Positions 1,143-45,014 of a stretch of 64,000 nt of DNA are shown here, one piece after another; the stretch's first letter is position 1, and each line of letters opens with the position of its first letter. The stretch is taken from IMG/VR virus record IMGVR_UViG_3300008255_004085; one strand, 5' to 3'. A model generated the notes under the pieces. That model was not told the DNA's origin and searched no databases. It worked only from the letters and a program-made list of their open reading frames with translations. The stretch comes from an uncultured virus (IMG/VR IMGVR_UViG_3300008255_004085) (lineage: Duplodnaviria > Heunggongvirae > Uroviricota > Caudoviricetes). A program made the position numbers and the translations under genes.

Positions 1143-1745
1143 ATGAAAACATTTTTGAGAATAATAGAAGAATTTAGTGAACATGGATCTTTAGTTAGAA
1201 ACGAATATCTTTTAAGTGCTGGGAAATTTGTTAAAGATGAAATTTTAATTCAAGGATCAATTGTTGAATTAGGATCTTATCGAGGTGGATTGACGATCAA
1301 ACTTGCAAAGATTGCCAACGAATTAGGAATAGAACCTATTTTCGCAGTAGATCTTTGGAAAGAAACTGAAACAGCACAATCAAAACTTGAAAGAATTTCA
1401 GAAGAAATTTATCAATCATTTTTAGATAAATTAGAATCTTTTAATGTTTCAGATGATGTCTTTGTCATCAGGCAAGACACAGCAGAGACAGGAGAAAATT
1501 GGGATGAAGGCCCCATCTCTTTTCTTGTAATTGATGCAAACCATAGATATGAAGCTGTTGTTCAAGATATAATTTCGTGGAAAGATCATGTAATCGAGGG
1601 CGGCTACATTTTCGTTGATGATTTTGGACCTTGGGATGGGACAAATGGTCCACAAGGGGCTGTTGAAGATAAATTACTCAAAACACAAGAAGCAGAACTA
1701 ATTGATCAAATTGGATGTTATGCATTGCTGAAAAAATTAAATTAA
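1143..1745 (+). CDS. Class I SAM-dependent methyltransferase (Methyltransf_24-like)
   Basis: IVELGSYRGG, AVDLW, FLVIDANHRYEAVVQD, GGYIFVDDF; GGAGG RBS 5 nt before ATG 1143. Confidence 0.88.
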   Translation: MKTFLRIIEEFSEHGSLVRNEYLLSAGKFVKDEILIQGSIVELGSYRGGLTIKLAKIANELGIEPIFAVDLWKETETAQSKLERISEEIYQSFLDKLESFNVSDDVFVIRQDTAETGENWDEGPISFLVIDANHRYEAVVQDIISWKDHVIEGGYIFVDDFGPWDGTNGPQGAVEDKLLKTQEAELIDQIGCYALLKKLN

Positions 1746-2405
1746 AATTGAAGAATAATCATTTATCTCTAAACTATAATCATTTTCAATAAAAGATCTA
1801 TATTCTAATTCTATTATTTTTTCTAGATTTTTTGCAGAAAATAATGCTTTCTCTTTTATCCCAATAGAAGAGATATTCTCAAATTTTCTATTTAAAACTA
1901 ATTCTTCCTCAAAATCAACTTCTAAAATTTTTAGAATTTCAATTAAATCTTCTTTTAGATTTTCTGTTTTACCTATAAAATTGATTTTTTTAAATCCTTC
2001 TGCTCTTGTGTAAAGATCATAAATTCTTGTTAAATATCCTGGTGTGAATTTGATTACATTTTTAATAAATCCATTAAAATCTTCTCGTGCATTGTTCTCT
2101 TCAAAACATAAAGTATCTAAATCCCAGGTTGGGTGCCATTGGGCTTTGTCTTCAAAAAGTCTTTGAGAAGATTTTGATTTAAAAGCCCAATAAGATCGAT
2201 ACCATTCAAGTGGATTTCTAACAAAAGTAAATAAAAAAAGATCTTGATGAATATATCTTTCAAAATATTTAGGTGAAAGAGCTAAAAATCCATGTTTTAA
2301 ACCAAATGATTCTATTGGGATGCTAAGTTCAAGAAAAATACGCCAAACCCAAGTTCCTCCTGTTTTTGGAATAATAGAATTATTTTCTGAAAGAAGAATT
2401 GGCAT
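1737..2405 (-). CDS. Sulfotransferase (Sulfotransfer_2-like)
   Basis: IPKTGGTW (5'-phosphosulfate loop), FTFVRNPLEWYRSYW (3'-phosphate motif), FIGKTENLKEDL; ATG 2405 overlaps the upstream TGA. Confidence 0.82.
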   Translation of the reverse strand: MPILLSENNSIIPKTGGTWVWRIFLELSIPIESFGLKHGFLALSPKYFERYIHQDLFLFTFVRNPLEWYRSYWAFKSKSSQRLFEDKAQWHPTWDLDTLCFEENNAREDFNGFIKNVIKFTPGYLTRIYDLYTRAEGFKKINFIGKTENLKEDLIEILKILEVDFEEELVLNRKFENISSIGIKEKALFSAKNLEKIIELEYRSFIENDYSLEINDYSSILI

Positions 2406-3937
2406 CACGATTTCCTTTTTAAACAAAAGAAACAACTTAAAAATTCTTTATTTTTAATTTTATCCCTAAAAGCATTTGATTCCTCTGCATCTGAATAAAA
2501 AGAATCCCGATCTGAAACAAACTGATCCCATTCATTGACTTTACGATATCTATCCCCATCAAGATCGTGGTAGCCAGGATGAATCATAGAAATAAAAACT
2601 TTTTTAAATTCTTTCAAAGAATTTAAAATTTCAAGAACTTGATCATCATTCTCTATAAATTGAAGCAACTCAAAAATAAATACAGAATCAAAATCTTTTT
2701 TATCTAAATTTTGAATTAATGACTCTAAAATATCAAAAATATAACTATTAAAATCTTTTTTAGGAAGAATATATTTATTTCTTATTTCTTTATTTTTAAC
2801 CCAAAATGCATAAAGCTGAGGACGAGTTATAATTAGAATTTTTTCTTTTTCACAAACATCTTTAATCTCTCTAATAAATTCATATCTATTTGATTTTACT
2901 TCGAATTTTTTTTTAGATTGTGTATCAAATAGATATCTTTGATTTTGATGACTTGATTTCAAAAGCTCAAGTTTTTCTTGATCTGAATTCAACTTTTGAA
3001 TGTCATCAAAAAGAATTCTAATATCTCTTCCAACAATTCCATTAACTCCAATTGGTGCTATCATTGTTTCTGGATTATTTCGAAGATAAATAAGATATTC
3101 ATCAGAATTGATTGGGGCAACTGCATTGCAATGTGGGCAAAATTTCCAGTCAAAATTTCTATAACTAAATCTATAATCATTTGTTGGAGGATTAAATTCC
3201 AGATCGAAAGTGTTCGGATAATTAACCAAACAGAATTCTTTTTCACAACAATAGGAATTTGGTTCTTCAAGCTCTGGAATTATTGAATTGGGTGATTTAT
3301 CATGCTCAATTCTAAACATTGCATGACTAATTGTTTGGGATTGAATCCCAGGGAGATGAATCCATCGGCTGTTCATATCTGCATCTTCGTGATGGATCAT
3401 TGTTGTTGCTGCCTCATCGTTCCCGTTGATTTTTAGCATATTCTCTCGTGTAAACGAAAACATACCAGAAGAGCAACACATAATCTGTCTGAGGTTGTTG
3501 AATCGTGGTTTAAACATTTCATAAATTTTATCTGGATGTTGATCCTCAAATTCTTCTATTGGTTTGGTGACATGTGAAAAATCTGTAAAAATTCCCTTTT
3601 GATAATTTTGAATAACCCATTCAAGTGTTTTCTTATGGAACCATCTATAAACGCCCATTCTTAAAAACAAATTATTTTTAGCTAACATTAGGGCATTATT
3701 ATAAACTTCCCAATGAAATCTTCTGCCGATATGTATAGCTTTGCACAATGGCAGATGCTTAACATCTTTTAAATCAAATTTTTCACAAAGATTTTTAACT
3801 ACTTCTTGGTTTCTTTGGCAATGACCATCAAGAAGTATCCATTCAAAATCTTGAACAGTTTGTTGAGCAAGACATTTAATCATTAACTCAAGTTGTTTAG
3901 TCCCAGGAAATACATTTGTAGTTAAAACACTAATCAT
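2405..3937 (-). CDS. GT2/GT7-like glycosyltransferase with Cys cluster and degenerate C-terminal domain
   Basis: MISVLTT...LAQQTVQDFEWILLDG N-terminus; LKINGNDE...HHEDADMNSR resembles the GT2/GT7 C-terminal motif; CCEKEFC and CPHC. Confidence 0.72.
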   Translation of the reverse strand: MISVLTTNVFPGTKQLELMIKCLAQQTVQDFEWILLDGHCQRNQEVVKNLCEKFDLKDVKHLPLCKAIHIGRRFHWEVYNNALMLAKNNLFLRMGVYRWFHKKTLEWVIQNYQKGIFTDFSHVTKPIEEFEDQHPDKIYEMFKPRFNNLRQIMCCSSGMFSFTRENMLKINGNDEAATTMIHHEDADMNSRWIHLPGIQSQTISHAMFRIEHDKSPNSIIPELEEPNSYCCEKEFCLVNYPNTFDLEFNPPTNDYRFSYRNFDWKFCPHCNAVAPINSDEYLIYLRNNPETMIAPIGVNGIVGRDIRILFDDIQKLNSDQEKLELLKSSHQNQRYLFDTQSKKKFEVKSNRYEFIREIKDVCEKEKILIITRPQLYAFWVKNKEIRNKYILPKKDFNSYIFDILESLIQNLDKKDFDSVFIFELLQFIENDDQVLEILNSLKEFKKVFISMIHPGYHDLDGDRYRKVNEWDQFVSDRDSFYSDAEESNAFRDKIKNKEFLSCFFCLKRKS

Positions 3938-5562
3938 TTTTCAGCTCTCCTAACATGAAAACATCTTGAAAGAGAGTTTTCAAATTCATCACCCATTGCT
4001 TCTCTTAATTCCGAAGACATTTCTGCATTTGTTAAAAATTGTTTGCTTTTTGAAAAGAACTCATCCCACCAAGAGAGGGGTTTTGAAGATGCTGGACTAA
4101 TTATCAAAAAAGCAAATTTATATTTTTGAAGAACTTCTTTTAAATAAAAAGAAACCATTTCCTCTTCAAACTCATCAATAGAAAAAACAACAAAAACACC
4201 ACCTGTTGATTTTTTATCCTCTTCAATTGATGCATCAAACTTTTCTTCAATTTTTTCAAGAGCATTAATTAATTCAAATTTATTTGAACTCATTTTTTCT
4301 TTTCTTTTCAAAATTTTATTAATAGCATTATATTTATCAACATTGATTTTCTCATTTCTTTCTTCAAGTTTGTATTTTTCATAGAAATATTTTGGGTGCA
4401 GTTTTATTTTTTTATTTCTAATTTTTTGTTCAAAAAGTTTGTCAAATTCTTCAAGATAAACATAAGCAGAATTTGACCTAATTTCCGATTGGAATAAAGA
4501 CAAATCTTCTATTTTAAGTTTTTTCCACCAATCAACAACATCTTTAAAAAAACTTGTCATTCTTCTAATATCTTTTCTTTTAATTGTTGGAATTAAACTA
4601 CAGGTAAATTGTCTCTGATCAATCCCTAATCCAAAACAAGCCATCCCATTTCCGGCAGCAGGAAGAATTCCGTGAACTCTCCCGCTAATCAAAACATCAT
4701 GGTCACCAAATAACTGAAAGAATTTTTGATAACATGGAGCAAAATTTGCTGTTTTTCCAGGAAAATATTTCAACCAAAAAAATTTATTATCTTTATTTAA
4801 ATTATCAATTTCAATTAATGGCATGTCTTCTTTTAATTCTAAATCATCAAAAACATTTCTTTGAAACATTAAATCAACTTTACAACCTTCTTGTTCAAAG
4901 AAATTAATTATTTTTTTCATTTCAGAAAAATAAAAATGTATTTCTTCTTCTGAAAAAAGACCATTGTTTCTCAAAGTGAACACATCTAAAATTTCTATTA
5001 GAATTTTATTTTTATTTTTTCTTAAATCTTGATCAAGGCAATGAAATCCAAGACATTGATTCATAATAACTCTTTGTGGAACAAATCTAGAGATCAAGCT
5101 ATAACAATTAGGATCACGACAAATAATTAATTTAAGTTGATCTGATTCAATTATCTGTTGCAATTGTTCACTTTTTGCTTTGAAAATGTGCCATTCATAT
5201 TTATCCCATTTACATCCTGTCCCGATGCTAAATAATGAAAATGGTATATTTTGTTGAATACATGATTCATAAATAACTATATCTGTTTTATTGAACCAAG
5301 CTGGACTTCCAACTCTGATCAATAAATCTGAATTTTCAAGAGCTTCGGAGGTATTCTTGGAGAATTCATTAATTTCATCATCACTCAAATTATCATTTTT
5401 ACATTTAACCCATTTAAAATCAATATCTAAATCTTTAAAAAGTCTATAAAATCCAGTACAAGCTATTCCATCAGCATTATCCCATCTATAATCCAAATCT
5501 TTAATATCTCTTTTTTTATCTAAATAATTATGTATTTTTGGTTTTACTAGAACTATTTTCAT
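3934..5562 (-). CDS. Polysaccharide pyruvyl transferase family protein
   Basis: DLLIRVGSP, FSIGTG, IICRDP, LISGRVHGILPAAGNG (typical RxH motif). Confidence 0.75.
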   Translation of the reverse strand: MKIVLVKPKIHNYLDKKRDIKDLDYRWDNADGIACTGFYRLFKDLDIDFKWVKCKNDNLSDDEINEFSKNTSEALENSDLLIRVGSPAWFNKTDIVIYESCIQQNIPFSLFSIGTGCKWDKYEWHIFKAKSEQLQQIIESDQLKLIICRDPNCYSLISRFVPQRVIMNQCLGFHCLDQDLRKNKNKILIEILDVFTLRNNGLFSEEEIHFYFSEMKKIINFFEQEGCKVDLMFQRNVFDDLELKEDMPLIEIDNLNKDNKFFWLKYFPGKTANFAPCYQKFFQLFGDHDVLISGRVHGILPAAGNGMACFGLGIDQRQFTCSLIPTIKRKDIRRMTSFFKDVVDWWKKLKIEDLSLFQSEIRSNSAYVYLEEFDKLFEQKIRNKKIKLHPKYFYEKYKLEERNEKINVDKYNAINKILKRKEKMSSNKFELINALEKIEEKFDASIEEDKKSTGGVFVVFSIDEFEEEMVSFYLKEVLQKYKFAFLIISPASSKPLSWWDEFFSKSKQFLTNAEMSSELREAMGDEFENSLSRCFHVRRAEK

Positions 5563-5585: not shown

Positions 5586-6191
5586 TTATGCATATGCATA
5601 AAACCTATTCTCAAAACACCATTTGTATTTTTCTTCAACCAGATGAAATAGATTTTTAGAAAAATAATTCTCTGGGGCATCATGAATAGAAGTATTAACA
5701 CTTTTTAACTTTACATCTATATTTAATCCTTTGCTAGATAAAAAAGATGATAAATCATCATTAATACTTTCTAATTTTAGAATTGTAAGATTTTTAGGAG
5801 TTTGACCATCAATCGTCAATAACTCCCCAAAAGACCTATCATGAATATCCTTGCTTTTACACCAATATTCAACGAACTCTTCAAAAGTATGCTCTCTTGC
5901 AAATGACATTGATAATCTATTGGGGCTTACGTTACTTGCCTGATTATAGAAAAAATATAAAGAAACAATATGTGAATATGGATTTCGAATATTAGATATT
6001 ATATCATAATTATCTAGACAGATTCCTAATTTGTTAATATATTCTATCGGTTCTTGTAAAGACTCATGTTCTGTTTTATTGTTATAATAGACAAAATTTG
6101 GAAATAAGTCTTTTAAAAAATATTTGGTTGAAGTACCTCCTGTTTTTTTTATATGTAAAAATGCTATTTTAGGATCTGGAAAGATAATCAT
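5586..6191 (-). CDS. Sulfotransferase (Sulfotransfer_2-like)
   Basis: AFLHIKKTGGTS, IRNPYSHIVSLYFF, LKLESINDDL, VNTS. Confidence 0.85.
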   Translation of the reverse strand: MIIFPDPKIAFLHIKKTGGTSTKYFLKDLFPNFVYYNNKTEHESLQEPIEYINKLGICLDNYDIISNIRNPYSHIVSLYFFYNQASNVSPNRLSMSFAREHTFEEFVEYWCKSKDIHDRSFGELLTIDGQTPKNLTILKLESINDDLSSFLSSKGLNIDVKLKSVNTSIHDAPENYFSKNLFHLVEEKYKWCFENRFYAYA

Positions 6192-6577
6192 TTTTCCCTT
6201 TCATGATGTTTTAATGCTGGTTTCATTAAATTAAATTCTGGCCAGAGGAATTTGCCCCCGAAGATTACTTTTGGCTTTTTAATTTGTGAAGCAAGTGAGC
6301 AGGCATCGCTAACAAATCGTTGATTTAGATCTGACATAAAATTCTTTTTCACATAGATTTTGATGTCATTCCCGGTTAGACCTTTTTGGATAGCTTGATA
6401 GGCTGATCTGGTTGCTGATGATTGGATCGTCATTAGATTGAACAATTTATCTTTTGAAATTTGGTCAAACCAAGCGATAGCAGGGATCGTGGTTCTCATA
6501 GTTAAAGAATTCTTTAAATAAAAGATTGATCCCTTATTTGAATAAGTTTTTCTAAGTTTTTCTAAATTCTCGGCCAA
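6188..6577 (-). pseudogene. N-terminal fragment of an IS200/IS605 TnpB-related protein (no RuvC)
   Basis: LMTIQSSATRSAYQAI...LNQRFVSDA...KVIFGGK matches the N-terminus of TnpB-related accessory proteins; ORF ends about 20 aa after VIFGG; locally higher GC. Confidence 0.6.
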
Positions 6578-6591: not shown

Positions 6592-7557
6592 TTAAAAAGA
6601 ATCTAATTTCTTTTTAACTGCATTCAAATCATCATCATAAAAAATTGGGAAAAAAGTTTTTTCAATATTTTCTGGATTAATTGGTCCAAGATATGGGAAT
6701 AATTTGTCAGATCTAGTCCCACCTTGACATCTGAAAATTTCAAGACAAGGTGTTTTTAAAACATCAGAAATCATTCCGAAACCAGATTCATAGGTAATAA
6801 CAAAATCAATTGATCTAATTAATTCAATTAAATCAAGAAAATTATGATCAATTAGAAGTTCACATTTTATGCCTTTTGCTTTCATAGAATTAAAAACATC
6901 AGAAGTTAGATCATTGTCATAGCTTGCACCGACAACAAAAATTTTTAGATCTTCAAATTCCTTCCAATTTTGAATTAACAAAGTAAGATCTAACCAGAAA
7001 TTTGGATCTGGGTGAACGTTGCAATTGAGATTGTTCCTATAACTTGAACAATAGAGTAAAAGATTTTGTTTGTTTTCTGAAATTTTTCTTTTAGCCCATT
7101 CTTTTGATTGATCGTTTGTTTTTAACTTGATGTCATAACAACATGGGAATTTTGGCATAAATTCTTCAATGTGTTTATTATTTTCAAGAAAAGAATTGAT
7201 GTGAAGAACAGGAATTCCATTGAATAAAACATTTTTGGGTGGATTGAAAATATCATCGATATTTTTTAAGATATATTTTTTGTGATTAAACCCAGGAAGA
7301 TATTCAAAAGATTTAATACCTTCCAAGGCCCCAAGAATCTGATGAGATCTTTGTGGCCAAGAATCTGTTGTTTTTATATTTATCTCAAAACCTTGATTTA
7401 TTAAATGAATTGTCTTGAAATGGGTATAAATGATATCTCCAAGGCCATTTAGATAAAAAAGATCTATTTCATTCTTTTTTTCAAGATGAGAAGGTTTTAT
7501 TTCTTTTATTTCTCCTGTTATGGCAATGGGTGTCTTTCCTTTAATTCTAATTCTCAT
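6592..7557 (-). CDS. GT9-like (GT-B) glycosyltransferase, divergent
   Basis: NGLGDIIY, FVVGASYD, DFVITYESGFGMISDVLKTP. Confidence 0.7.
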   Translation of the reverse strand: MRIRIKGKTPIAITGEIKEIKPSHLEKKNEIDLFYLNGLGDIIYTHFKTIHLINQGFEINIKTTDSWPQRSHQILGALEGIKSFEYLPGFNHKKYILKNIDDIFNPPKNVLFNGIPVLHINSFLENNKHIEEFMPKFPCCYDIKLKTNDQSKEWAKRKISENKQNLLLYCSSYRNNLNCNVHPDPNFWLDLTLLIQNWKEFEDLKIFVVGASYDNDLTSDVFNSMKAKGIKCELLIDHNFLDLIELIRSIDFVITYESGFGMISDVLKTPCLEIFRCQGGTRSDKLFPYLGPINPENIEKTFFPIFYDDDLNAVKKKLDSF

Positions 7558-9629: not shown

Positions 9630-9677
9630 TTCGACCTTTCAATTTTGTTCTTCTCACAAAAAACAGAAAAACCTTCC

Positions 9678-9733
9678 CAAATCAAACAAGCCGCTAAAAG
9701 CCACTGGTGGCTCTGTGCGGCTTGTTTGATTTG
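9678..9733 (-). terminator. Long hairpin; possible intrinsic terminator or ncRNA 3' stem
   Basis: Perfect 17-bp inverted repeat (9678-9694 / 9717-9733) around an inner AGCCAC/GTGGCT stem; T-rich tract follows on the minus strand after a few nt. Confidence 0.5.
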
Positions 9734-9840
9734 TCGCTGGTCTCTGGGTAGTGGTTTCGTCTATCTATTGTCCTGGGGCATCCTGTGGCTTTTCGGCTTC
9801 GTTGCCATCGGAAGTCACCTCGGTTTCGTCACCGTTCAAG

Positions 9841-9912
9841 ATTCTTTCATGGGACTTGAACCCACGACATGCCGTTTTTCTACGAGCGCTACTACCAACC
9901 GTCACAGTGTAA
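9841..9912 (-). ncRNA. Degenerate tRNA-like element (Phe-GAA-like loop)
   Basis: Minus strand GTTGGTAGTAGCGC...TAGAAAAA...ATGTC-GTGGG-TTCAAGT-CCCAT: good T-arm and D-loop-like motif; acceptor and D stems poor, no CCA. Confidence 0.4.
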
Positions 9913-9945
9913 CACACACCCGACACTCTATCAAACTGAAAGGAA

Positions 9946-34964: not shown

Positions 34965-34983
34965 TTTTAACTCCAATTAAAAT

Positions 34984-35709: not shown

Positions 35710-35727
35710 TTCATCCTCCAATACAAA

Positions 35728-37730: not shown

Positions 37731-39324
37731 AATATAATATATTACCATTTTTAATATCCCAATGTCTCGTCTTAATATCCCAATCATTTAATAAAATTAA
37801 ATTATTTTTATTCAAAATTCTTCCAAATTCAATATCTGGATATGGATATTTATTTATATCATCTAAAACATTACAATATAAAGGAAAATATTTAGACCAG
37901 CATATACTTCTCCATAAAGCCAAACCGAATCCACAACATCCTATTTTAGATAATCCTTTTTTATTTTTTTCATATTTTATATCTTTTAGTATTATTTCTT
38001 CATCTAAATCATATGATAATAATATATCATTATTATATCTAGAAATAATTGTAGCAGTTACGACACCAATGCTGTAACTCATTGATTTTATAAATTTTGG
38101 AATTATATCAGTAGATGTGCATTCTTGATCATCTTCTATTGTTAAAACAAAATCACAATTTTTAGGAATATGTTGTTTAGCTAGATTATATAAATAAACA
38201 ATATGTTCACCAAATTTATGTTTTAAAATAGATCTATGTTTTGAATTATTGGCAAAATCAGAATTTGACATATCATTTGAAACTTTTTTATTACAATTAA
38301 TAATATTAACAGAATTCCAATCTAATTTATTTAAATATTCATTTAACTTTTGTGTAAATTCTAAATTACATGAATTATTTATAAAAATTCCATGTAATTT
38401 ATTTTTATTCCATCCTAATTTATATAAATTACTAATAACATTTTCTAAACACCATTCTCTTCCAGAAAATAACATAACAACAGCTATATGAGAATTATTA
38501 AAAATTAAATAATTATTATTTCTATTATGAATATTAATCATAGAATCTTTATGTTGTCTATAATTCCAAAAATTACCATCAATATATTTGAATTCCCATC
38601 CAAAATTATATATTTTTAGGAATAGACTCCAATCTTGAAGTGCTGGGATGTCACTATCCCAACCATTGACACAATCAATTGCCATTTTTCTTATTAAACA
38701 GCATGTATCTATATAATTTTGTTTTCTTATATATCCTTCTTCTGGTTCTTTTTTAACATAATCATATTGTCCAATAATATTATCATTATTATCAATAGTA
38801 TTAGGAGTAGAATAAACTATAGCAATATTTCCAGAAATATATTTTAAATGATTTTCTAGAAAATGATTTTCTAGAAAATTATCCGCATCTATATTAACTA
38901 TAAATTTAGTTTCAACCATATTTGTAGCATATTGCCTAGATCTTCCCACTGAAGCAAAATTTACTTTATAATATTCAACATTATATTTTTCACAAATATC
39001 TTTAGCGTTATCATTGTCAGAAGCATCATCTATAACAATAATTCTATCAAATTTTTTTGTTTGATTAACAACAGAATATAAACATTTATCAAGATAATTA
39101 TCATAATTATGATTTGTTATTATAGCTGTAGTATTTGATTTATTATTATCTAAAATATAATCAAATTTTTTTAAATATTTTTTTACTATTTCTATATCAT
39201 CTTTTATTATAAAATTGTTATCTTTAGATTTAATTAATACAAAATCACCATCCATTTTATATGAAATAATTTTATTTTCTTCTATTAATTCTATAAATTT
39301 TATTAAATTTATTTCTTTTATCAT
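37720..39324 (-). CDS. GT2 family glycosyltransferase with two GT-A domains
   Basis: IITNHNYDNYL, IIVIDDASD, NIDADN, QDW; second domain TIEDD...CGFG; start moved to MIKEIN (39324) by paralogy. Confidence 0.85.
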   Translation of the reverse strand: MIKEINLIKFIELIEENKIISYKMDGDFVLIKSKDNNFIIKDDIEIVKKYLKKFDYILDNNKSNTTAIITNHNYDNYLDKCLYSVVNQTKKFDRIIVIDDASDNDNAKDICEKYNVEYYKVNFASVGRSRQYATNMVETKFIVNIDADNFLENHFLENHLKYISGNIAIVYSTPNTIDNNDNIIGQYDYVKKEPEEGYIRKQNYIDTCCLIRKMAIDCVNGWDSDIPALQDWSLFLKIYNFGWEFKYIDGNFWNYRQHKDSMINIHNRNNNYLIFNNSHIAVVMLFSGREWCLENVISNLYKLGWNKNKLHGIFINNSCNLEFTQKLNEYLNKLDWNSVNIINCNKKVSNDMSNSDFANNSKHRSILKHKFGEHIVYLYNLAKQHIPKNCDFVLTIEDDQECTSTDIIPKFIKSMSYSIGVVTATIISRYNNDILLSYDLDEEIILKDIKYEKNKKGLSKIGCCGFGLALWRSICWSKYFPLYCNVLDDINKYPYPDIEFGRILNKNNLILLNDWDIKTRHWDIKNGNILYYGD

Positions 39325-39337
39325 TTTTTTATCTTTC

Positions 39338-40894
39338 TTATAAAATTTGTCCATGTGTATTATGTTTACATAAAACATTGGCATCTAATAAAATTTTATA
39401 TCCTATTTCTCTGAGCATTCTACAAACATTTGCATCCCATCCTAATGGTTCCACAGATCTATCTAATAAATTAAATCCACCTATTTTATTAATAGCATAT
39501 CTAGGATATAATGTACAACCACCACCAACAAATCCTACCTCTATTACTCCATATAATTCATCCATATTAGGTATATCTTGCCATGCATCAAGTGCTCTTG
39601 CAGCACAAGCTTTTCCTCTTATTTCTGGTGTTTCATAAAGACCACCAACAGCACCTATGTCTGTTAGATCAGCAATTGATTTATGGAGATCATATATAGC
39701 TGTTAATGGAGGAAGAACATCATCTTCAAGAGTAAAAATAAAATCTTCTACAACCCTTGGAATAACTTCAAGATATAATTTAGAAACCAATCTATGTATT
39801 CCATACCAACCCGGTTGACATATATCAGAAACTTTAGAGTAAGAAAATGATTCAAATCTTGAAAGATCAATATTCTCTAATAACCATTTATGAGTGTTTT
39901 TATCATTAGTATTATCAACAATATATAAAGAACAAAAATTTGGCAATATAGCATTATTAATCCATTCAACCCATAATTTTTGAACATTTTTTCTATTTGG
40001 AGCCAAACAAGTTACTATTCCAAAACTTCTACACTTAAAAAATACATCAAAAATTTCTTTTTTACTTATAATAGATCTTCTACCCCTTTCGTGTTCTCTC
40101 ATTAAAACAGAGGGTGCAGAAGAATGTTTACCGCACCAACCTTTTGAAGATAATTTTAATGAAACAATCCAATCATCACAATTTTCTATTAATAAATATC
40201 CTCCTATAGATCTTAATGCGTCAATTCTCCAACATGCAGATGTATCTAAAAAATTATTTTCTCTTAAAAGATCATAATTCCATTCTGGAACAATTCTTAA
40301 TTTAGTAGGATTTAAATTAGAATCTGTATATTGTATATCACTATAAATAAAAGCGACTTTAGAATTAGAATTTTTTATATCTCTTCTATAGGAATCAATA
40401 AATCCTTCAGGCATATAATTGTCAGTATCCCATCCAACCTGCCATGAGGTTTTACATTTGTTTAAAGCTAAATTTCTTGCTGGAATAGGTGTTCCCCATT
40501 TTCCAGTAATTATTTCCCAATCTTTCTTTTCTTTTAACCAATCAGGAATATTTATATCATCTAAACAAACTATCTTCTGATCTGGATTATTTTTATCAAT
40601 TGATAAAATAGTTTCCTCAAGCCAATCAGAATAAGCTTCATGACAAGTTAATGTAACAGCAATAGTATTTCCATTCTCAAACACAAATTTATCATAAATA
40701 CTTAATATTTTAGATTCTCTATCATAATTAATATTTATTTCTTTTAAATATTTTTCTGCTATATCTAAGTTATTTTTTATAACTAAAAGTTCATCTGATT
40801 TTATTTCAATTGAATCTTTTAAAATTTTAAAAGATTCAATTTTATTTTCTTCTATTAATTCAATTAATTCAATTAAATTTATTTCTCTTATCAT
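39338..40894 (-). CDS. GT2 family glycosyltransferase with two GT-A domains
   Basis: ARNLAL, WDTDN, FIYSD, CDDW; second domain YIVDN, TLEDDV, VGGGC. Confidence 0.85.
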   Translation of the reverse strand: MIREINLIELIELIEENKIESFKILKDSIEIKSDELLVIKNNLDIAEKYLKEININYDRESKILSIYDKFVFENGNTIAVTLTCHEAYSDWLEETILSIDKNNPDQKIVCLDDINIPDWLKEKKDWEIITGKWGTPIPARNLALNKCKTSWQVGWDTDNYMPEGFIDSYRRDIKNSNSKVAFIYSDIQYTDSNLNPTKLRIVPEWNYDLLRENNFLDTSACWRIDALRSIGGYLLIENCDDWIVSLKLSSKGWCGKHSSAPSVLMREHERGRRSIISKKEIFDVFFKCRSFGIVTCLAPNRKNVQKLWVEWINNAILPNFCSLYIVDNTNDKNTHKWLLENIDLSRFESFSYSKVSDICQPGWYGIHRLVSKLYLEVIPRVVEDFIFTLEDDVLPPLTAIYDLHKSIADLTDIGAVGGLYETPEIRGKACAARALDAWQDIPNMDELYGVIEVGFVGGGCTLYPRYAINKIGGFNLLDRSVEPLGWDANVCRMLREIGYKILLDANVLCKHNTHGQIL

Positions 40895-40903: not shown

Positions 40904-42790
40904 CTATCTTAAAAGATAATCTGGGTCTCTCAAATAACTAAATTCAGCAACAATCATAAAAGAACTTGGTGAGGTTGATGTTTCACAAATCAAATAATCT
41001 GTTGTTTCAAGAAAAAGTTTGTCAATCAATTCAAAATTGTCTGTTTGAGTTCCAGCAGAAATAATTGATCCAGAAGAGGTCGAAATTGAAACAACCGTTG
41101 AATTTGATGTGCATCCATAAATCTTGCTAATTAAAAACCCATCAATCCAATCAATTTTTGGAAAATGAAGATAAAAATCTTGTGCAAAATCTTGATCAAT
41201 ATTTGCCTCTGAAACAGAAACTCCTGCTTTAAAAACCTGTGTGATCACTTCTTCACTAATCCAATAACCTTCAACACCTCCATAAGTTGTTGATTCTTCC
41301 CATCTCCAAACCAAATCTGTAAAACTCAAATCACGAATTCTATACCCATCAAGTCTTGAATTCCCATAAAACTCATCATCAACTGGAAGATAACCAGATC
41401 TGATGCTACCAACTTCTTTTTGAATCCAAGCATAATCTCCAATCCCATTGTCATAATAATAAAGCCAAAGAGCACCGGATCTATCTCTAAGTGTTGTTCC
41501 GTTAACTAACCTTGAGGAGTCATCGTTATGACCATATTTATCTCCCCATTCTTTTTCATTAACAAACAAACCCTCTTCGTCGCTAATAATCGTTTGGAAA
41601 GAGTCCCCATAAAGGGTCAAAGTTAATCCATCACCAGAATAAACTATTGGGGAACTCGCATCAACCTTGAATTTAAGTGTGTTGGTTGCACTTGCCTCTG
41701 AAACAACAGACCCAGAACCAATGATCCTCAAACTTGAATTTTCTGTCGCTGTCCCTGTGCCGGTGTCTCCAACTAAAAGAAATTCAGCAAGAGTTCTTCC
41801 AATCCCATCTGTTGTCAAAAATAAACCATGGTTTGTTGAATGGAGTTTAATCCCAAGTTGATCTGCAACAAGCTGAAGTCCAGATTCGTCTGAAATTAAA
41901 ACACTTACTTCAATTTCATCATTCGAATTTAAATAAGTTCTCATTGGAGAATCTGAAAGAATTTCAAAAGTTTCATCGTTTGAAATGTTCTCTGTTTCAC
42001 CTTCGTCAGCATCAACATCAAAGTTGAAATCAACTTCTAAAATTCCAGTAGCATAAAGCCCATCGGAGTCTATTGCTAACCCACCACCAGATTTCAACTT
42101 CAGAAGAAGTTTTCCACCTGAAATTTGAAGCCCATCATTTGATTTTAAATCAAGAGCAATTTCAAGTTCATTTGACCCAAGATTTTCAGTTGTAACACCT
42201 TCGCCACCAAGGACATATAGAACATCTCCAATCCCGATTGTTTGTGAATCAACATCCCCTGAAAGCGTCCAAGTCAAATCGTCCGGCCAATTTTTAAATG
42301 TTGTTGAGATTGATGTGAAACTTGAAAAAGAAGGCGTTATATCTAAATCACCTGTTCCAAGTTTAAAAGAGTTATCTGGTGCTGTTGCATCTTCATCAAC
42401 AGCTATGAATTCAACATCTGTTGGCCCTGCAATCGCTGCGTCTGTTGCAAGTCCAGAAAGGAGAGAAATAACAGCATAAAGATCGCCAGAAGTTGCTCCA
42501 CCAGTTGTGTTGAATGTAATTCCAGTTGTCAATGTTGTTGAAAAAGCAAAAACCTCATCGTCATCATCAACAATGAGCATAGAAACAGCAGGATAGCTTT
42601 GACCACCATCAGTTAAATCTGTTTCATCAACAGCCCCACCTGAATAAATTCCCTCACCACCAAAGACAGTCAATTGAGCCTTGGCATAGCTCGTCCTGGC
42701 AAGAATGTTTTGAGACAAATCAGTTGATGAAATATATTCTATTTTTTGAGATGTTAAAAGATTTAATCCTTTTCGTCTAATCCACGGCAT
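40904..42790 (-). CDS. Putative tail fibre/appendage protein (paralog 3, no RCC1 head)
   Basis: Shares N-terminal domain and LKSGGGLAIDSDGLY shaft repeats with the 45062 and 50855 ORFs; start at MPWIRRKG after GAGGAG. Confidence 0.62.
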   Translation of the reverse strand: MPWIRRKGLNLLTSQKIEYISSTDLSQNILARTSYAKAQLTVFGGEGIYSGGAVDETDLTDGGQSYPAVSMLIVDDDDEVFAFSTTLTTGITFNTTGGATSGDLYAVISLLSGLATDAAIAGPTDVEFIAVDEDATAPDNSFKLGTGDLDITPSFSSFTSISTTFKNWPDDLTWTLSGDVDSQTIGIGDVLYVLGGEGVTTENLGSNELEIALDLKSNDGLQISGGKLLLKLKSGGGLAIDSDGLYATGILEVDFNFDVDADEGETENISNDETFEILSDSPMRTYLNSNDEIEVSVLISDESGLQLVADQLGIKLHSTNHGLFLTTDGIGRTLAEFLLVGDTGTGTATENSSLRIIGSGSVVSEASATNTLKFKVDASSPIVYSGDGLTLTLYGDSFQTIISDEEGLFVNEKEWGDKYGHNDDSSRLVNGTTLRDRSGALWLYYYDNGIGDYAWIQKEVGSIRSGYLPVDDEFYGNSRLDGYRIRDLSFTDLVWRWEESTTYGGVEGYWISEEVITQVFKAGVSVSEANIDQDFAQDFYLHFPKIDWIDGFLISKIYGCTSNSTVVSISTSSGSIISAGTQTDNFELIDKLFLETTDYLICETSTSPSSFMIVAEFSYLRDPDYLLR

Positions 42791-44388
42791 TGAGACTCCT
42801 CTATAAACATTTTCTCGGCACAATCAACAACTTCCTCTGGATTCGGAAGATATTCATACCAATCTCTAACTAAAAATTCTGCTGTCTGTCCGTAAATTTC
42901 GGTCGGTGCAGACGGGATATCATCAAGAGATAATTCCTTAAATAATGCTTTTGATTTATAATTCTTGTCCCCATTTCTCCATGGAAGAATATGGTCTGGG
43001 TTTTTGCAACTCGGGATTAGAAGTATTTGATTATCAAAAGCACCAGCTATATGAATTGGTGAAGAATCATTAGAAACCAAAACTTTTGCCTGAGAAATAA
43101 CAGCAAAAAGTTCGCCCAAACTCAAAAGATTCCTAAGATCAATCATCCCATCTCTAACTTCTACATTCAATGTTCCCCGAGTTTCTTCCTCTTTCCCAAT
43201 CAAACAAACTTTTAATCCTTTTTCGTGAAGACCGTCAATAATTTTCTGCCACCATTCAACAGGAAAAGTCTTAGATTCCCAATGCCGACCAGCGTGAACA
43301 AGAACAACATCTTCCAATGAATCAAAATTAACTATTTCATTAACAGAATCAATATCATCAACTTTTAGATCTAATTGTATCTCTTTATCTTTGTCAGGAA
43401 GGGTTCTTCTTAAAACAGCTATTGAAACGAAATCAACTGTGTGACACAGAAGGTTTGAGACATATGTCCACATCGGGGTTTCTGGGCCAGGAAGTGTGAC
43501 CACATGATAAAATTCGCCATCAAAATCTTTTTTCAATTCACCATGAAGATAAACAGGAGCATTGATGTGTTGAAAAACTCTTGGGAAATGAGTCACAATT
43601 CTAACATCATCATTTGGATAAATATATTTCAGAAGATATCTAATTGTTGGTCCTGCATCAATTTGATCACCAAGACCTCCTTGGACATCAATTAAAATAT
43701 GCCTTTGATATTTAAATTCAGGGGCATCATTTTTCCATTTTTCAAGATCTTTAGCAATCAACCCTGGAAGGATGCTAACATCTGGGACTCCTGCATAGTG
43801 AATAGCATAACTATCAAATCTTTCCTCGCCTGTCTTTCCATCCATACAACACATTCGATTGAATTTGTGAGTTATTTCAAATGTTTTAATTTTCATTTTT
43901 GCAATCATAATGTTCAGATAACTTTGTTCATAAAAGTTAAAGATTTCTTTTTCTGGTTTTTTAAAAAGATCTTTATGATATCTTGAAACTACCATAACAC
44001 CAGAGTTAAAATATTGTCCATCCCAATTTGGCAAAGTTGTTTCATATTCTTTGCAAGCTTGATAAATTGTTGTCACCCTTCCATCTGTGAATGGAGCCTC
44101 GTTGAACACCCCCAAAGAATCTTCAGGGACAATACCAAAAAGGTCTGGACAATCTTCACGGATGATGATGTCGGTGTCAAAATAGATAATTCTATGATAT
44201 TTATTTAAGAAATTTTTAATTGCAAATTTTTCCCAATGCGGAGTTGTTTGTGCAATATTTTTTTCAGAAAGAACAATAAAATCAGCCCCAATTTTTTCAG
44301 CATAACTCTGAATTGTTGGGTGTGTCAACTCTCCAATTTTCTGATACTTCTCACCCATACAAATAGTAACAATAGCATTTTTATTCAT
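42763..44388 (-). CDS. GT8-like / GT9 glycosyltransferase fusion
   Basis: YFDTD, YFNSGVMV, EQSYLN, IHYAG; then GGLGDQI, LVSNDSSPIHIAGA; start moved to MNKNA after GGAG. Confidence 0.88.
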   Translation of the reverse strand: MNKNAIVTICMGEKYQKIGELTHPTIQSYAEKIGADFIVLSEKNIAQTTPHWEKFAIKNFLNKYHRIIYFDTDIIIREDCPDLFGIVPEDSLGVFNEAPFTDGRVTTIYQACKEYETTLPNWDGQYFNSGVMVVSRYHKDLFKKPEKEIFNFYEQSYLNIMIAKMKIKTFEITHKFNRMCCMDGKTGEERFDSYAIHYAGVPDVSILPGLIAKDLEKWKNDAPEFKYQRHILIDVQGGLGDQIDAGPTIRYLLKYIYPNDDVRIVTHFPRVFQHINAPVYLHGELKKDFDGEFYHVVTLPGPETPMWTYVSNLLCHTVDFVSIAVLRRTLPDKDKEIQLDLKVDDIDSVNEIVNFDSLEDVVLVHAGRHWESKTFPVEWWQKIIDGLHEKGLKVCLIGKEEETRGTLNVEVRDGMIDLRNLLSLGELFAVISQAKVLVSNDSSPIHIAGAFDNQILLIPSCKNPDHILPWRNGDKNYKSKALFKELSLDDIPSAPTEIYGQTAEFLVRDWYEYLPNPEEVVDCAEKMFIEESQCRGLDEKD

Positions 44389-44402
44389 TTCACTCTCCGT
44401 TT

Positions 44403-45014
44403 TCAAATTTCAAAATATAAGCGGTTACTGTGTTGATATCCATTTTCAATAAATTGTTTAATTATAGGTTTCTCGCTCTCGATCACATATTCCGAATCAT
44501 CAATGACTACAAGACCATTATATTTCATTTTTGATGAAAACCATGTAATTTCTTCTTGAATTGTGTTTTCTTCATGATCACCATCAAGATAGGCAAAACC
44601 AATCTCTTTTGGGATTTCTTTGCCTTCAAACCACATCGGGATTGAATCATAAATCTTGATGAAATCTAAACTTCTCATTCTCCAGTGATAATGGAATTGT
44701 TTTGTTTCTTGACAAAAATTTGCAAGTTCTTTCATTGCTGTGAGATAGTAACCATCGTTATAATTCATATTTAAAACTTCTTTTCCACGAAGATATGGTT
44801 TGTTTCCATATGGGTCAATTGTGAAAAGTGGGCGTTGAATTTTGCTTTCTTGAATTGCGACTGCAAAAAGAAGCGCAGAGCCTCCTGCTCTTGTCCCAAC
44901 CTCAACAAAAGGAATCCCTGCTGGAATTTTTTTTGCGAATTCAAGAGTCTTTTCAAATAAAAAATCCATATCAGACGAGTGATCCGAAAAGCGTTTTGCT
45001 TGTTCTTTATCCAT
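44403..45014 (-). CDS. Class I SAM-dependent methyltransferase (Methyltransf_24/TylF-like)
   Basis: VEVGTRAGGS, TIDPYG, AYLDGDH, GLVVIDD. Confidence 0.85.
   Translation of the reverse strand: MDKEQAKRFSDHSSDMDFLFEKTLEFAKKIPAGIPFVEVGTRAGGSALLFAVAIQESKIQRPLFTIDPYGNKPYLRGKEVLNMNYNDGYYLTAMKELANFCQETKQFHYHWRMRSLDFIKIYDSIPMWFEGKEIPKEIGFAYLDGDHEENTIQEEITWFSSKMKYNGLVVIDDSEYVIESEKPIIKQFIENGYQHSNRLYFEI

Follow-up and report, generated by a model that had tools for sequence, protein, structure and literature searches.

Glycan-tailoring enzyme genes interleaved with tail-fibre genes in a probable very large uncultured phage: a candidate virion-decoration system

The 64,000-nucleotide stretch of DNA analysed here (hereafter the window) carries about 15 sugar-, sulfate- and methyl-adding enzymes between fibre genes, so the fibres probably receive a sulfated sugar coat from the phage's own enzymes. 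Glycosylation of virion proteins, accompanied by sulfation and O-methylation, is our best reading of the locus and is held with moderate confidence. The window itself is best explained as that end of a tail module which runs from baseplate to fibres; the phage would be very large, uncultured, low in GC, from groundwater and of a lineage with no cultured relative. The genome comprises at least 135 kb, and probably ~270 kb or more; aquifer metagenome contigs of 135,540 and 272,967 bp carry window proteins. The features are listed in Table 1.

Table 1. Features of the window, ordered along the minus-strand array, with the evidence for each assignment (bit scores are followed by the family cut-off in brackets where given).
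Position	Strand	Product or feature	Evidence
63545..64000	-	C-terminal 151 aa of a conserved ~488-aa protein upstream of the hub gene	cut by window end
60027..63530	-	baseplate central hub, 1167 aa	AF2 model, Foldseek, VIA, BFVD
59710..60021	-	small conserved 103-aa protein in the interval between hub and 1336-aa genes	synteny
55697..59707	-	conserved protein of 1336 aa, candidate for baseplate or wedge, NHL-type propeller blades	
54659..55672	-	conserved 337-aa protein between 1336-aa gene and fibres	
50855..54640	-	fibre 1, 1261 aa: shared N-terminal domain, adenovirus-fibre-like shaft repeat, RCC1 propellers	WD40_RLD E 2e-153; RCC1 E 2e-103; Av_adeno_fibre 27.9 bits (22.7)
45062..50824	-	fibre 2, 1920 aa: shared N-terminal domain, RCC1 propellers	
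44403..45014	-	Methyltransf_24 O-methyltransferase-like, 203 aa, block A	PF13578 40.6 bits (26.3)
42763..44406	-	GT8 + GT9 fusion glycosyltransferase, 547 aa, block A	PF01501 36.9, PF01075 56.8 bits
40904..42823	-	fibre 3, 639 aa: shared N-terminal domain	Av_adeno_fibre 36.1 bits (22.7)
39338..40894	-	GT2-like glycosyltransferase, 518 aa, block B	PF00535 21.6 bits, below 23.3; paralogue of adjoining GT2 (BLASTP E 2e-22)
37720..39384	-	GT2 glycosyltransferase, 554 aa, block B	PF00535 72.9 bits (23.3)
36604..37716	-	SAM methyltransferase + C-terminal kinase-like domain, 370 aa, block B	Methyltransf_31 34.7 bits (27)
35728..36600	-	Sulfotransfer_3 sulfotransferase, 290 aa, block B	PF13469 42.6 bits (27)
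34984..35721	-	Methyltransf_24, 245 aa, block B	PF13578 39.7 bits (26.3)
34029..34976	-	APS kinase + HIGH-motif nucleotidyltransferase domain, 315 aa, block B	PF01583 112 bits (21.1), PF01467 32.8 bits
24165..33944	-	acidic, S/T-rich giant protein of 3259 aa; candidate for distal tail or fibre	
21087..24152	-	1021-aa structural candidate	
11906..21073	-	giant 3055-aa structural candidate	weak F510_1955 (BNR-type), E 1e-6, below cut-off
10862..11887	-	341-aa protein	no match (Pfam, PHROG, NCBIfam)
9946..10854	-	302-aa orphan	no family match
9630..9945	-	structured GC-rich 316-nt intergenic region splitting block C	MFE -111.6 kcal/mol, z -5.88
8688..9629	-	GT9-family glycosyltransferase, 313 aa, block C	PF01075 60.8 bits (22)
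7554..8675	-	GT9-family glycosyltransferase, 373 aa, block C	PF01075 34.7 bits (22)
6592..7557	-	GT9-like paralogue, 321 aa, block C	no Pfam match
6188..6577	-	129-aa basic protein	no significant match
5586..6191	-	Sulfotransfer_2 sulfotransferase, 201 aa, block C	PF03567 31.5 bits (22)
3934..5562	-	542-aa alpha/beta protein	AF2 pLDDT 50
2405..3937	-	GT2-like GT-A domain (~1-340) + possible methyltransferase-like C-terminus, 510 aa, block C	Glyco_transf_7C E 0.03; Methyltransf_31 E 0.016
1737..2435	-	Sulfotransfer_2 sulfotransferase, 232 aa, last minus-strand array gene	PF03567 26.0 bits (22)
1131..1745	+	Methyltransf_24, 204 aa, convergent with array	PF13578 62.8 bits (26.3), TylF 26.7 bits
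355..1152		DNA N6/N4 methyltransferase, phage-typical family, at array end	phrog_67 E 2e-58; Pfam

Assignment to a phage-type tail module is supported by the hub fold, by a fibre set with a common N-terminal domain and by synteny of the module in five metagenome contigs. The AF2 model of the 1167-aa protein, computed from a 10-sequence alignment and of low confidence outside residues ~770-1160, has a gp27/Mu gp44/VgrG-type hub fold formed by residues ~3-20 and ~770-1160. Foldseek returned 56 PDB matches at E<=1e-3, including 3d37_A at E 1e-10, and a search of BFVD gave 390 matches at E<=1e-3. VIA aligned the model with 9g8s_q (Z 19.1, 305/311 aa), Mu gp44 (1wru; Z 17.0, 308/325 aa), T4 gp27 (1k28_D; Z 15.4), PVC (6j0m_A; Z 17.9) and diffocin (8v3w_H; Z 18.0). 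The whole chain of the known hubs thus superposes on the protein, which differs from them in a ~750-residue insertion of unknown fold that interrupts the hub fold, in a tiny family (10 clusters in 1.84 billion proteins) and in the absence of any Pfam or PHROG match or sequence-level match to known hubs. Searches of IMG/VR and of 185,579 species genomes gave no relative of the hub, and the lineage as a whole had no match in IMG/VR in five of six scans.

The gene order hub, 103-aa, 1336-aa, 337-aa and fibre is kept in all five related loci (metagenome contigs with the hub module, labelled L001-L005), as far as each extends. The protein truncated at the window end has 37-40% identity to ORFs of 488 aa that precede the hub gene in L001-L004, and the 337-aa protein 33-47% identity to equally placed 378/385-aa ORFs in L003-L005. 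In L001, L003, L004 and L005, the 1336-aa protein is matched over its full length at 44-47% identity by tblastn and 45-48% in a MAFFT alignment, and the 103-aa protein shows weak similarity to syntenic ORFs of 109-115 aa. Residues 799-833 of the 1336-aa protein match NHL-type 'Pizza'/PknD blades by profile, with no Pfam or PHROG match to the protein. Together with the hub fold, this conserved module supports the viral origin that the preliminary description had left to be confirmed; neither the window nor the related loci extend far enough to show genes for capsid, portal or terminase, and none was seen.

The three fibres share an N-terminal domain of ~250 aa at 35-40% identity, with 32-34% given for fibre 3 against the N-termini of fibres 1 and 2 (alignment, BLASTP), all three pass the Av_adeno_fibre cut-off, and the propellers of fibres 1 and 2 match phage RCC1 PHROGs. 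The true start of fibre 3 is likely a Met ~33 nt inside the ORF, which aligns with the starts of the other two. Among the giant proteins, those of 1021 and 3055 aa have a module of ~100 aa in common (36% over 103 aa, E 2e-8, BLASTP), and the 3259-aa protein, a candidate acceptor of glycans, has no signal peptide, transmembrane segment or family match. Signal peptides and transmembrane segments were likewise absent from the structural proteins. The fibres had been called Ser/Thr-rich, which is true in a modest sense: Ser plus Thr make up 18-21% of the fibre and giant proteins (1336, 1261, 1920, 639, 3259, 1021 and 3055 aa), compared with 16.7% in the hub and 8.5-14% in the enzymes (9-11% for most), and the fibres lack mucin-like tracts (maximum 15 S/T per 30 residues).

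Positions 1143-45014 form a minus-strand array nearly without gaps, in which the three enzyme blocks lie downstream of fibre or giant genes, as had been described. Sixteen of the 17 proposed enzyme genes are co-oriented on the minus strand, the sole plus-strand gene being the Methyltransf_24 gene at 1131/1143-1745. Junctions are tight: four show 4-nt overlaps and most of the rest are spaced by 3-14 nt. No intergenic terminator-like site was found in blocks A and B. Block C is split at 9630-9945 by a long hairpin with a T-run, which is terminator-like, followed by a promoter-like site at 9642-9613; no Rfam family or tRNA was found in this region.

Twelve of the 17 proposed modifying enzymes score above the curated Pfam cut-off and three have other support, namely 39338-40894 and 6592-7557 by paralogy and 2405-3937 by Atlas structure and features; two stayed unconfirmed. 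The three Methyltransf_24-like genes, the three sulfotransferases and the APS kinase fusion were all borne out at family level. For the methyltransferase-kinase, the SAM methyltransferase domain stood, and the kinase half gave a Pkinase match over the catalytic-loop region only (E 0.001-0.003, below cut-off). Seven of eight glycosyltransferases (GTs) were upheld by Pfam, paralogy or Atlas. The GT2-like domain of 2405-3937 was matched in Atlas at TM 0.73 (matched row) with features at 0.93, the protein encoded at 6592-7557 is 23% identical over 296 aa to that of 8688-9629 (pairwise E 2e-4, BLASTP), and the latter matches PDB 1psw (E 1.8e-6) across the C-terminal motif. The eighth, the 302-aa orphan, found only itself among 5.8 billion proteins, on seven contigs of which the longest is 272,967 bp. 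The pyruvyltransferase proposed at 3934-5562 was not sustained (PS_pyruv_trans E 2.2, at 8.5 bits where 25.3 is the cut-off); its three homologues have no Pfam domain, and its model gave weak GT-B-like matches with TM <= 0.2. No NCBIfam model reached its cut-off in 29 proteins except TIGR00125, a generic domain-level nucleotidyltransferase.

The APS kinase fusion (TIGR00455 108.6 bits, below the cut-off of 138.7) is predicted from its sequence to make or help make the sulfate donor PAPS and is encoded near a sulfotransferase gene; its two-domain build recurs in nine phage records at >80% coverage. The GT8-GT9 fusion has a 43%-identical relative near a tail sheath gene in an IMG/VR contig of 56.8 kb, estimated to be 18% complete. 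All enzymes are predicted to be soluble (Kyte-Doolittle). In the window (64 kb of at least 135 kb), neither a flippase, Wzy, ABC exporter or initiating phosphoglycosyltransferase (Pfam, NCBIfam) nor a membrane protein was found, no 19-residue stretch having a mean Kyte-Doolittle value above 1.61. The expectation that the blocks would stay beside homologous fibres found no support in the ~5.5 kb covered after the wedge genes of relatives with the same baseplate module: this stretch has two fibre genes and, after them, no enzyme gene, so that the enzyme blocks do not show up there as a conserved fibre partner. The enzyme genes of block B have a GC content of 0.21-0.27, compared with 0.32-0.40 in structural genes, and therefore look like later, moron-like additions of mixed origin.

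On the preferred reading, one long late transcription unit would give rise to the gp27-type hub, to three conserved proteins of the baseplate, to the three fibres with their common N-terminal attachment domain and to the three acidic giants, and ~15 soluble glycan-tailoring enzymes have been inserted into it among the tail genes. The GT9-, GT8- and GT2-type transferases would act in the cytoplasm late in infection, using host nucleotide sugars to equip freshly synthesised fibre and giant proteins with short O-linked glycans. The sugars may then be O-methylated by the Methyltransf_24 enzymes, possibly phosphorylated by the kinase-like domain, and sulfated from PAPS by the three sulfotransferases; the phage APS kinase would top up PAPS, and its fused HIGH-motif nucleotidyltransferase may supply APS. 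The decorated proteins would subsequently assemble on the baseplate, and the particle would acquire a sugar coat, anionic and methyl-capped, with possible effects on its adsorption, stability or recognition.

A serious rival reading, though a clearly less likely one, is that during infection the enzymes act on the glycans of the host envelope and alter its LPS core or O-antigen, its capsule or some other surface glycan. This could block superinfection or stop progeny sticking to debris, with host machinery flipping and exporting the products. The GT9, GT8 and kinase-like domains resemble the LPS-core toolkit, which classically comprises GT9 enzymes (the heptosyltransferase family), GT8 enzymes and WaaP-like kinases. 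As these are soluble or peripheral and use host export, the missing flippase, Wzy and exporter do not discriminate between the readings. LPS heptosyltransferases are also the best NCBIfam matches of the GT9 genes and the only solved relatives found by sequence in the PDB, the latter across the sugar-nucleotide motif alone; however, all these NCBIfam scores, at 20-56 bits, lie far under the equivalog cut-offs of 134-569. The mixed GC of the enzyme genes would suit accessory 'moron' cargo, but the three blocks are wedged among structural genes of one array rather than forming one cassette near integrase or early genes, no integrase or lysogeny gene was found in the window (Pfam, PHROG), and superinfection exclusion would be ill served by late expression.

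A cell-encoded extracellular contractile injection system (eCIS) or tailocin, with fibres glycosylated by neighbouring cellular enzymes, is very unlikely. Such machines and T6SS VgrG share the hub fold at similar Z, as the PVC and diffocin values above illustrate, eCIS fibres also have adenovirus-fibre-like repeats, and the lack of capsid and terminase genes in regions that do not reach them, like the absence of the lineage from IMG/VR, would fit this origin. Yet no relative of the hub turned up in the 185,579 species genomes, among which eCIS and prophages should be represented, the 64 kb hold no housekeeping gene (NCBIfam), a DNA methyltransferase of phage-typical family lies at the array end, and the same genes lie on contigs of 135-273 kb. 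Furthermore, the window contains ~30 kb of giant fibre-like genes plus three modular fibres, and to our knowledge eCIS loci are far smaller in such content. Glycan hypermodification of the phage DNA by the GTs and their companion enzymes, as a defence against restriction, is in our view extremely improbable. Neither sulfotransferases nor sugar O-methyltransferase-like enzymes nor GT9 are known to modify DNA, the enzyme genes lie within a tail-fibre module instead of a replication module, and no hydroxymethylase, DNA-GT family or nucleotide-kinase context was found in the window (Pfam, PHROG, NCBIfam), notwithstanding the DNA methyltransferase at 355-1152 and the well-documented precedent of virus-encoded GTs that decorate DNA (Pyle et al. 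2024; Markine-Goriaynoff 2004; via PMC12619734 and PMC5852040).

Virion decoration, the reading we favour, can be set against several known systems. LPS core assembly employs the GT9 enzymes WaaC, WaaF and WaaQ, the GT8 enzymes WaaI/J and the kinase WaaP from one locus with no exporter of its own. The present array differs in having no Kdo or lipid A genes, in scoring far under every NCBIfam equivalog cut-off, and in adding sulfotransferases and Methyltransf_24 enzymes within a tail-fibre operon. In the TibC/AAH systems with TibA/AIDA-I and in serine-rich-repeat adhesins, GT9-like, GT8 and GT2 enzymes glycosylate Ser/Thr in the cytoplasm, acting on large beta-rich surface proteins encoded beside them; those substrates are cellular adhesins exported after glycosylation. 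PDB sequence searches gave no TibC match, so kinship to TibC is supported no further than the GT9 family. Mimivirus fibrils represent giant-virus glycosylation of a comparable kind, and we know of no sulfation pathway in giant-virus glycosylation. Giant viruses are a eukaryotic, unrelated lineage whose genes are not interleaved with tail fibres. Like the set proposed here, that of the chlorovirus PBCV-1 is viral, multi-enzyme and ER/Golgi-independent, and makes complex, partly methylated glycans on the virus's own surface protein Vp54. PBCV-1 Vp54 and glycoproteins of the jumbo phage XacN1 are precedents in print (PMC5852040). Mycobacteriophages encode their own virion glycosylation (Freeman et al. 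2023, Cell Host Microbe 31:1216, as relayed in PMC12619734), and those of the Che8 type, as proposed for the present phage, have soluble, presumably cytoplasmic GTs with their own structural proteins as targets. The mycobacteriophage glycans are reported to be shown experimentally, on capsid and tail-tube C-termini, and to involve a few GTs and no sulfation. In the present phage, by comparison, fibres and giant distal proteins would be the acceptors, and the predicted enzyme set is larger: its ~15 members include three Methyltransf_24 enzymes, three sulfotransferases and an APS kinase.

In the ORF listing of the window, 29 minus-strand genes formed a near gap-free array running from 64000 down to 1737, with tight junctions and with products that include proteins of 3259, 3055, 1920, 1336, 1261, 1167 and 1021 residues. 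The array contains the three blocks of co-oriented enzyme genes that the preliminary description had proposed: block A, consisting of a GT8-GT9 fusion gene and a Methyltransf_24 gene, and blocks B and C, whose enzyme genes lie at 34029-40894 and, counting the unconfirmed 302-aa candidate, within 1737-10854. A scan of blocks A and B revealed no intergenic terminator-like sites. The island that divides block C had a GC content of about 0.48 within a 0.30-GC region and folded far better than its shuffled versions (z -5.88), with a long, perfect hairpin of the terminator type; it also carries a T-arm-like motif, yet no callable tRNA. Overall, the GC content was low and uneven (0.22-0.41 per 2 kb), the tRNA scan found no tRNA in the window, and no Rfam family reached its gathering score there. 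An alternative genetic code was considered and dropped, as table 11 yields long open frames and Shine-Dalgarno-like motifs precede most ATG starts. The coordinates of individual features are compiled in the table.

Table. Features of the window, and of the loci compared with it, that are referred to in the text. L001, metagenome contig with a hub relative; L007, IMG/VR contig; Salvo, Xylella phage.
Feature	Sequence	Coordinates	Strand	Remarks
DNA N6/N4 methyltransferase	Window	355-1152	-	PF01555 E 5e-32, phrog_67 E 2e-58; diverges from the next gene, with overlapping 5' ends
Plus-strand gene (Methyltransf_24)	Window	1131-1745	+	Convergent with the array, beyond its end
Sulfotransfer_2 gene	Window	5586-6191
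Fourth GT9-like gene (321 aa)	Window	6592-7557
127-aa ORF	Window	9579-9962	+	Hydrophobic stretches; overlaps the intergenic island; may be spurious
Intergenic island, 316 nt	Window	9630-9945	minus-strand sense	Hairpin and T-run, then promoter-like site; splits block C
3055-aa protein	Window	11906-21073
APS kinase-nucleotidyltransferase fusion	Window	34029-34976		phrog_10255
Segment of block B	Window	34984-39384		Mosaic composition relative to its flanks, inside one operon; enzyme genes GC 0.21-0.22, adjoining APS kinase gene GC 0.40
GT2 paralogue	Window	37720-39384
GT2 paralogue	Window	39338-40894
Baseplate hub (1167 aa)	Window	60027-63530	-
ORF upstream of tail genes	L001	3-833
ORF upstream of tail genes	L001	733-1566		Overlaps the preceding ORF by about 100 nt, in a different frame
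PEP-CTERM-motif protein	L007	7512-8186	-	Near the GT8-GT9 fusion relative, a GT1 gene and two metallophosphoesterases
APS kinase-nucleotidyltransferase fusion	Salvo	15167-15913		phrog_10255

Sequence searches alone are uninformative on whether this DNA is viral. An exact 50-mer taken from the end of the window did not occur in collections of viral, metagenome or genome contigs, and the stretches covered here, the window and five related contigs, end short of the genes for major capsid protein, portal and large terminase. Megablast of positions 40-64 kb against 50,697 phage records gave zero matches, and tblastn against the same records found none for the 1167-aa protein (the hub, see below), the 1336-aa protein or the fibre N-terminus. 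IMG/VR contained no relative of the hub (searched as single sequence and as alignment), the fibre N-terminal alignment, the 1021-aa protein or the Sulfotransfer_3 protein, and a word-index protein search with the hub and with a 302-aa protein returned each query alone. An exhaustive HMMER search of 1.84 billion representatives retrieved 10 clusters of hub relatives; none of the 10 family members matched a Pfam family, the hub had no PHROG match, and its profile found nothing among PDB sequences at E<=10.

An AlphaFold2 model computed from the alignment of these relatives was poor overall (pLDDT 46), with moderate confidence only at residues about 770-1160 and in an N-terminal strand; the modelled part nevertheless superposes on entire baseplate-hub chains. 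Foldseek returned 56 matches at E<=1e-3 (E 1e-10, TM by target 0.63), and VIA aligned about 300 residues to more than 40 hub entries with Z values of 14-19, including the hub of phiCD508 (Z 19.1, 305/311 residues), Mu gp44 (Z 17.0) and T4 gp27 (Z 15.4). Among 390 BFVD matches at E<=1e-3, those with a name were baseplate hub, 43 kDa tail protein, gpP or protein D. As modelled, the 1167-aa protein fits the gp27 / Mu gp44 / VgrG-type hub fold over the whole reference chain. Some 20 residues at the start of the protein and some 400 at its end make up this fold, and the about 750 residues between them form an insertion of no assigned fold, within which residues 326-536 gave a beta-sandwich-like match to an invertase C-terminal domain (Z 9.7).

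Hub relatives are encoded on five metagenome contigs, where the genes follow one order as far as each contig reaches: a 488-aa protein, the hub, proteins of about 110, 1330 and 380 aa, and fibres. According to tblastn, the about-1330-aa proteins are 44-47% identical to the 1336-aa protein of the window, and the fibre N-termini match those of the window fibres, so that in the window and the contigs alike the hub lies upstream of wedge-like and fibre genes. Searched against Pfam and PHROG, 15 neighbour proteins of these contigs yielded no family and one sub-threshold propeller match, and no gene for a sheath, tube or tape-measure protein could be recognised. The overlap of the two ORFs upstream of the tail genes on L001 may come from programmed frameshifting, as for tail chaperones, or from a start that was called wrongly.

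The three window fibres (639, 1261 and 1920 aa) have a common N-terminal domain of about 250 residues at 35-40% identity, and all three exceed the cut-off for the adenovirus-fibre shaft repeat; phage fibre sets typically combine a common anchor with distal parts that diverge. In PHROG, the 12 structural-candidate proteins had no match except for the RCC1 repeats of two fibres. PDB sequence searches gave no matches for the 1336-aa and 1021-aa proteins and nothing significant for those of 639, 321 and 302 aa (best E 0.3-0.7). By eye, the giant 3055-aa protein and the 1021-aa protein have an FN3-like module in common; the former also shows several 'SxDxGxTW' repeats of the BNR/Sortilin type, for which a weak NCBIfam match (F510_1955) is the only backing, and, around residue 2130, a 'DxTGS' motif resembling vWA.

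The hub fold, the module conserved in five contigs and the fibre set with its common N-terminal domain together support the viral origin assumed at the outset, and the window is very probably phage DNA. Because the hub fold is also common to eCIS, tailocins and T6SS, a cellular contractile or tail-like machine is a formal rival, and Pfam models for sheath, tube, gp25-like, Baseplate_J and AAA ATPase proteins had no match in the window or the five contigs, in which the region upstream of the hub is partly covered. Against such a machine, however, a pattern-based search of limited reach found no hub relative among 185,579 species, each represented by a single genome, and none of the 29 proteins reached an NCBIfam cut-off, save for the generic domain-level nucleotidyltransferase model TIGR00125. 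Moreover, the giant proteins lack signal peptides, and proteins of the window have been recorded from contigs of 135,540 and 272,967 bp.

All 17 enzymes listed in the preliminary description correspond to ORFs; 12 pass curated Pfam cut-offs, three are backed indirectly, and two, proteins of 542 and 302 aa, could not be substantiated. Soluble phage-encoded glycosyltransferases are present, with GT2, GT8 and GT9 domains and no transmembrane segments. Those passing the curated cut-off are one GT8-GT9 fusion, one Glycos_transf_2 and two Glyco_transf_9 proteins, with Glyco_transf_9 (PF01075) scoring 34.7, 60.8 and 56.8 bits in three genes against a cut-off of 22. Paralogy is the sole support for the fourth GT9-like gene, whose product aligns end to end with the adjacent GT9. 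A 518-aa protein scored 21.6 bits for GT2, under the cut-off of 23.3, yet is plainly paralogous to the GT2 beside it, and a 510-aa protein appears, from its Atlas model and features, to contain a GT2-like GT-A domain, its nearest feature clusters including GT2-methyltransferase fusions labelled viral. The 302-aa protein, proposed as an eighth glycosyltransferase, is an orphan that matches no family. The two GT2 paralogues listed in the table have a common N-terminal extension of about 75 residues, absent from ordinary GT2 enzymes and weakly matching Paratox (PF24313, E 5e-4) and phrog_2133, which may be an adaptor or targeting domain. Assignment to the LPS heptosyltransferases WaaC/WaaF/WaaQ was not supported, as the best NCBIfam equivalog score was 55.9 bits against a cut-off of 134.6 and the others were 18-40 against 134-569.

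Within the 50,697 phage records, tblastn found one weak GT9 match and, for the GT8 part, four S-CAM7 records. A relative of the GT8-GT9 fusion (43% identity) is encoded on the IMG/VR contig L007, estimated by CheckV to be 18% complete, where genes for a tail sheath, a GT1 and a Mom-family protein lie nearby. The fusion thus circulates in large phages, though on L007 no adjacent fibre was recognisable.

The three sulfotransferases belong to Sulfotransfer_2 (26.0 and 31.5 bits against 22) and Sulfotransfer_3 (42.6 against 27), and the translation of each shows an N-terminal Gly/Ser/Thr loop where we would expect the loop for the 5'-phosphate of PAPS; the Sulfotransfer_2 gene listed in the table had no tblastn match among the phage records. 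APS_kinase (PF01583) scored 112 bits against 21.1 over positions 3-147/152, with a visible P-loop, which identifies the domain, while the score for TIGR00455 (108.6 bits) was under the equivalog cut-off of 138.7. At its C-terminus, this kinase is fused to a HIGH-motif nucleotidyltransferase that matches only CTP_transf_like / HIGH_NTase families. A bifunctional PAPS synthase (APS kinase plus ATP sulfurylase) was not supported, since no match to an ATP-sulfurylase domain was found and the bifunctional NCBIfam models align to the kinase part alone; a role of the fused domain in making APS is accordingly speculative. Phages of Xylella, Xanthomonas and Stenotrophomonas have the same two-domain build at about 25% identity, and in phage Salvo the gene lies among early and nucleotide genes, a context that lends no support to a link with fibres and neither helps nor hurts the proposal. 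Annotated 'kinase' in PHROG (phrog_10255), the fusion recurs among phages and is also found in those of Clavibacter; as the phages carrying it are not obviously sulfating anything, its real substrate there may not be APS.

Three Methyltransf_24 proteins and one SAM methyltransferase pass the curated Pfam cut-off, and secondary matches of the former include TylF and rhamnosyl-O-methyltransferase. As phrog_2675 (Methyltransf_24) is labelled 'DNA methyltransferase', the substrate of the plus-strand copy might be DNA instead of sugars. In the protein described as a methyltransferase-kinase, the SAM methyltransferase was confirmed, and the kinase half resembled the catalytic loop of protein kinases at a score under the threshold. 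The 542-aa candidate pyruvyltransferase aligned to positions 12-279/280 of PS_pyruv_trans (PF04230) at 8.5 bits (E 2.2) against a cut-off of 25.3, and its homologues had no Pfam domain in 3/3 cases. Its AlphaFold2 model (pLDDT 50) was poor for a fold test, with weak GT-B-like matches, the best to UDP-GlcNAc 2-epimerases, at TM <= 0.2.

Judging by family, the enzymes would transfer sugars (GT2, GT8, GT9), O-methylate them (Methyltransf_24) and sulfate them (three sulfotransferases), with PAPS supply probably helped by the APS kinase. The best explanation, on which our judgement is evenly poised, is glycosylation, sulfation and methylation of virion proteins in a novel jumbo-size groundwater phage, whose enzymes would decorate its own fibres with a sulfated, O-methylated glycan. 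The fibres are favoured as acceptors because each of the three blocks sits between structural genes of a single array and export and lipid-carrier genes are absent from the window. Indeed, as initially described, no window protein matched a flippase, Wzy, ABC exporter or initiating-transferase family or had a transmembrane-like stretch. The enzymes could instead remodel the host envelope, which we consider rather unlikely. GT9, GT8 and a kinase are also an LPS-core toolkit, and LPS-core enzymes need no phage exporter, which weakens the argument from the missing flippase. Furthermore, in a test of TibC kinship, phmmer searches with the GT9 genes against the PDB at E<=1 listed only LPS heptosyltransferases, matching over the C-terminal nucleotide-sugar motif alone, although a distant relation to the protein heptosyltransferases TibC/AAH may exist, and the GC content of the block B enzyme genes (0.21-0.27, versus 0.32-0.40 in structural genes and 0.37 in fibres) suggests later acquisition from elsewhere.

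Two further expectations bear on fibre decoration. The fibres are modestly Ser/Thr-rich (18-21% Ser+Thr), which is often the case for phage fibres, and acceptor-like Ser/Thr tracts were not found in them. That the enzyme blocks stay beside fibres in related genomes gained no support: the two relatives whose sequence reaches past the wedge genes carry two fibre genes and no enzyme gene in the about 5.5 kb covered there. The DNA of the window was present in aquifer and groundwater metagenomes in 18 rows, which may all derive from one campaign, two being possible sources and six containing at least half of the words. Contigs from four further runs were identical to the window wherever they overlapped (33-52 kb compared), being low-depth pieces of the same genotype with short noisy joints in AT-rich stretches, and no variant among them was informative on presence or absence of the enzyme blocks. 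A more specific form of fibre decoration, which we put forward tentatively and hold to be somewhat short of probable, is that jumbo groundwater phages of an unseen lineage coat their giant tail fibres with a heptose/hexose glycan resembling the LPS core, which would bear sulfate, O-methyl and perhaps phosphate groups, with their own PAPS supply, possibly via a minimal APS-kinase/nucleotidyltransferase 'PAPS synthase'.

The enzyme set beside the fibres is among the largest seen, carries its own sulfate-donor enzyme and comes from a phage lineage that lacks cultured or annotated relatives. Should the fibres be the acceptors, the particles could carry anionic, methyl-capped glycans, which would matter for adsorption and host range, for how stable the particles are in groundwater and for whether defences or grazers recognise them. 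With a sulfated fibre coat, these phages would be the first bacterial viruses to bear sulfated glycoprotein on their surface, which would explain what phage sulfotransferases do, and the compact, soluble enzyme/substrate pairs of the locus are suited to co-expression tests. If the host envelope is the target, the locus would represent a large phage-borne LPS-remodelling kit, likewise of interest.

Adhesins are known to be glycosylated in the cytoplasm by GT9-like and GT8/GT2 enzymes whose genes adjoin those of their substrates, and virion glycosylation by phage-encoded enzymes is, to our knowledge, established for few phages only. Precedents are mycobacteriophage virion glycosylation (PMC12619734) and the glycoproteins of jumbo phage XacN1 and PBCV-1 (PMC5852040); the function of phage sulfotransferases is stated to be unclear in PMC10580990. 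A literature full-text search, which covered texts other than subscription journals and supplements, returned no report of phage-encoded virion sulfation or of GT9-type glycosylation of phage fibres or virion proteins. Compared with virus-encoded virion glycosylation, the system proposed here would work alike; as a candidate predicted from genes, it is not filed as a member of any of those cases, which are defined by glycans on virion proteins. New features would be sulfation, for which the phage itself encodes a PAPS step, how many and how varied the enzymes are, the use of fibres and giant distal proteins as acceptors, and the lineage of the phage.
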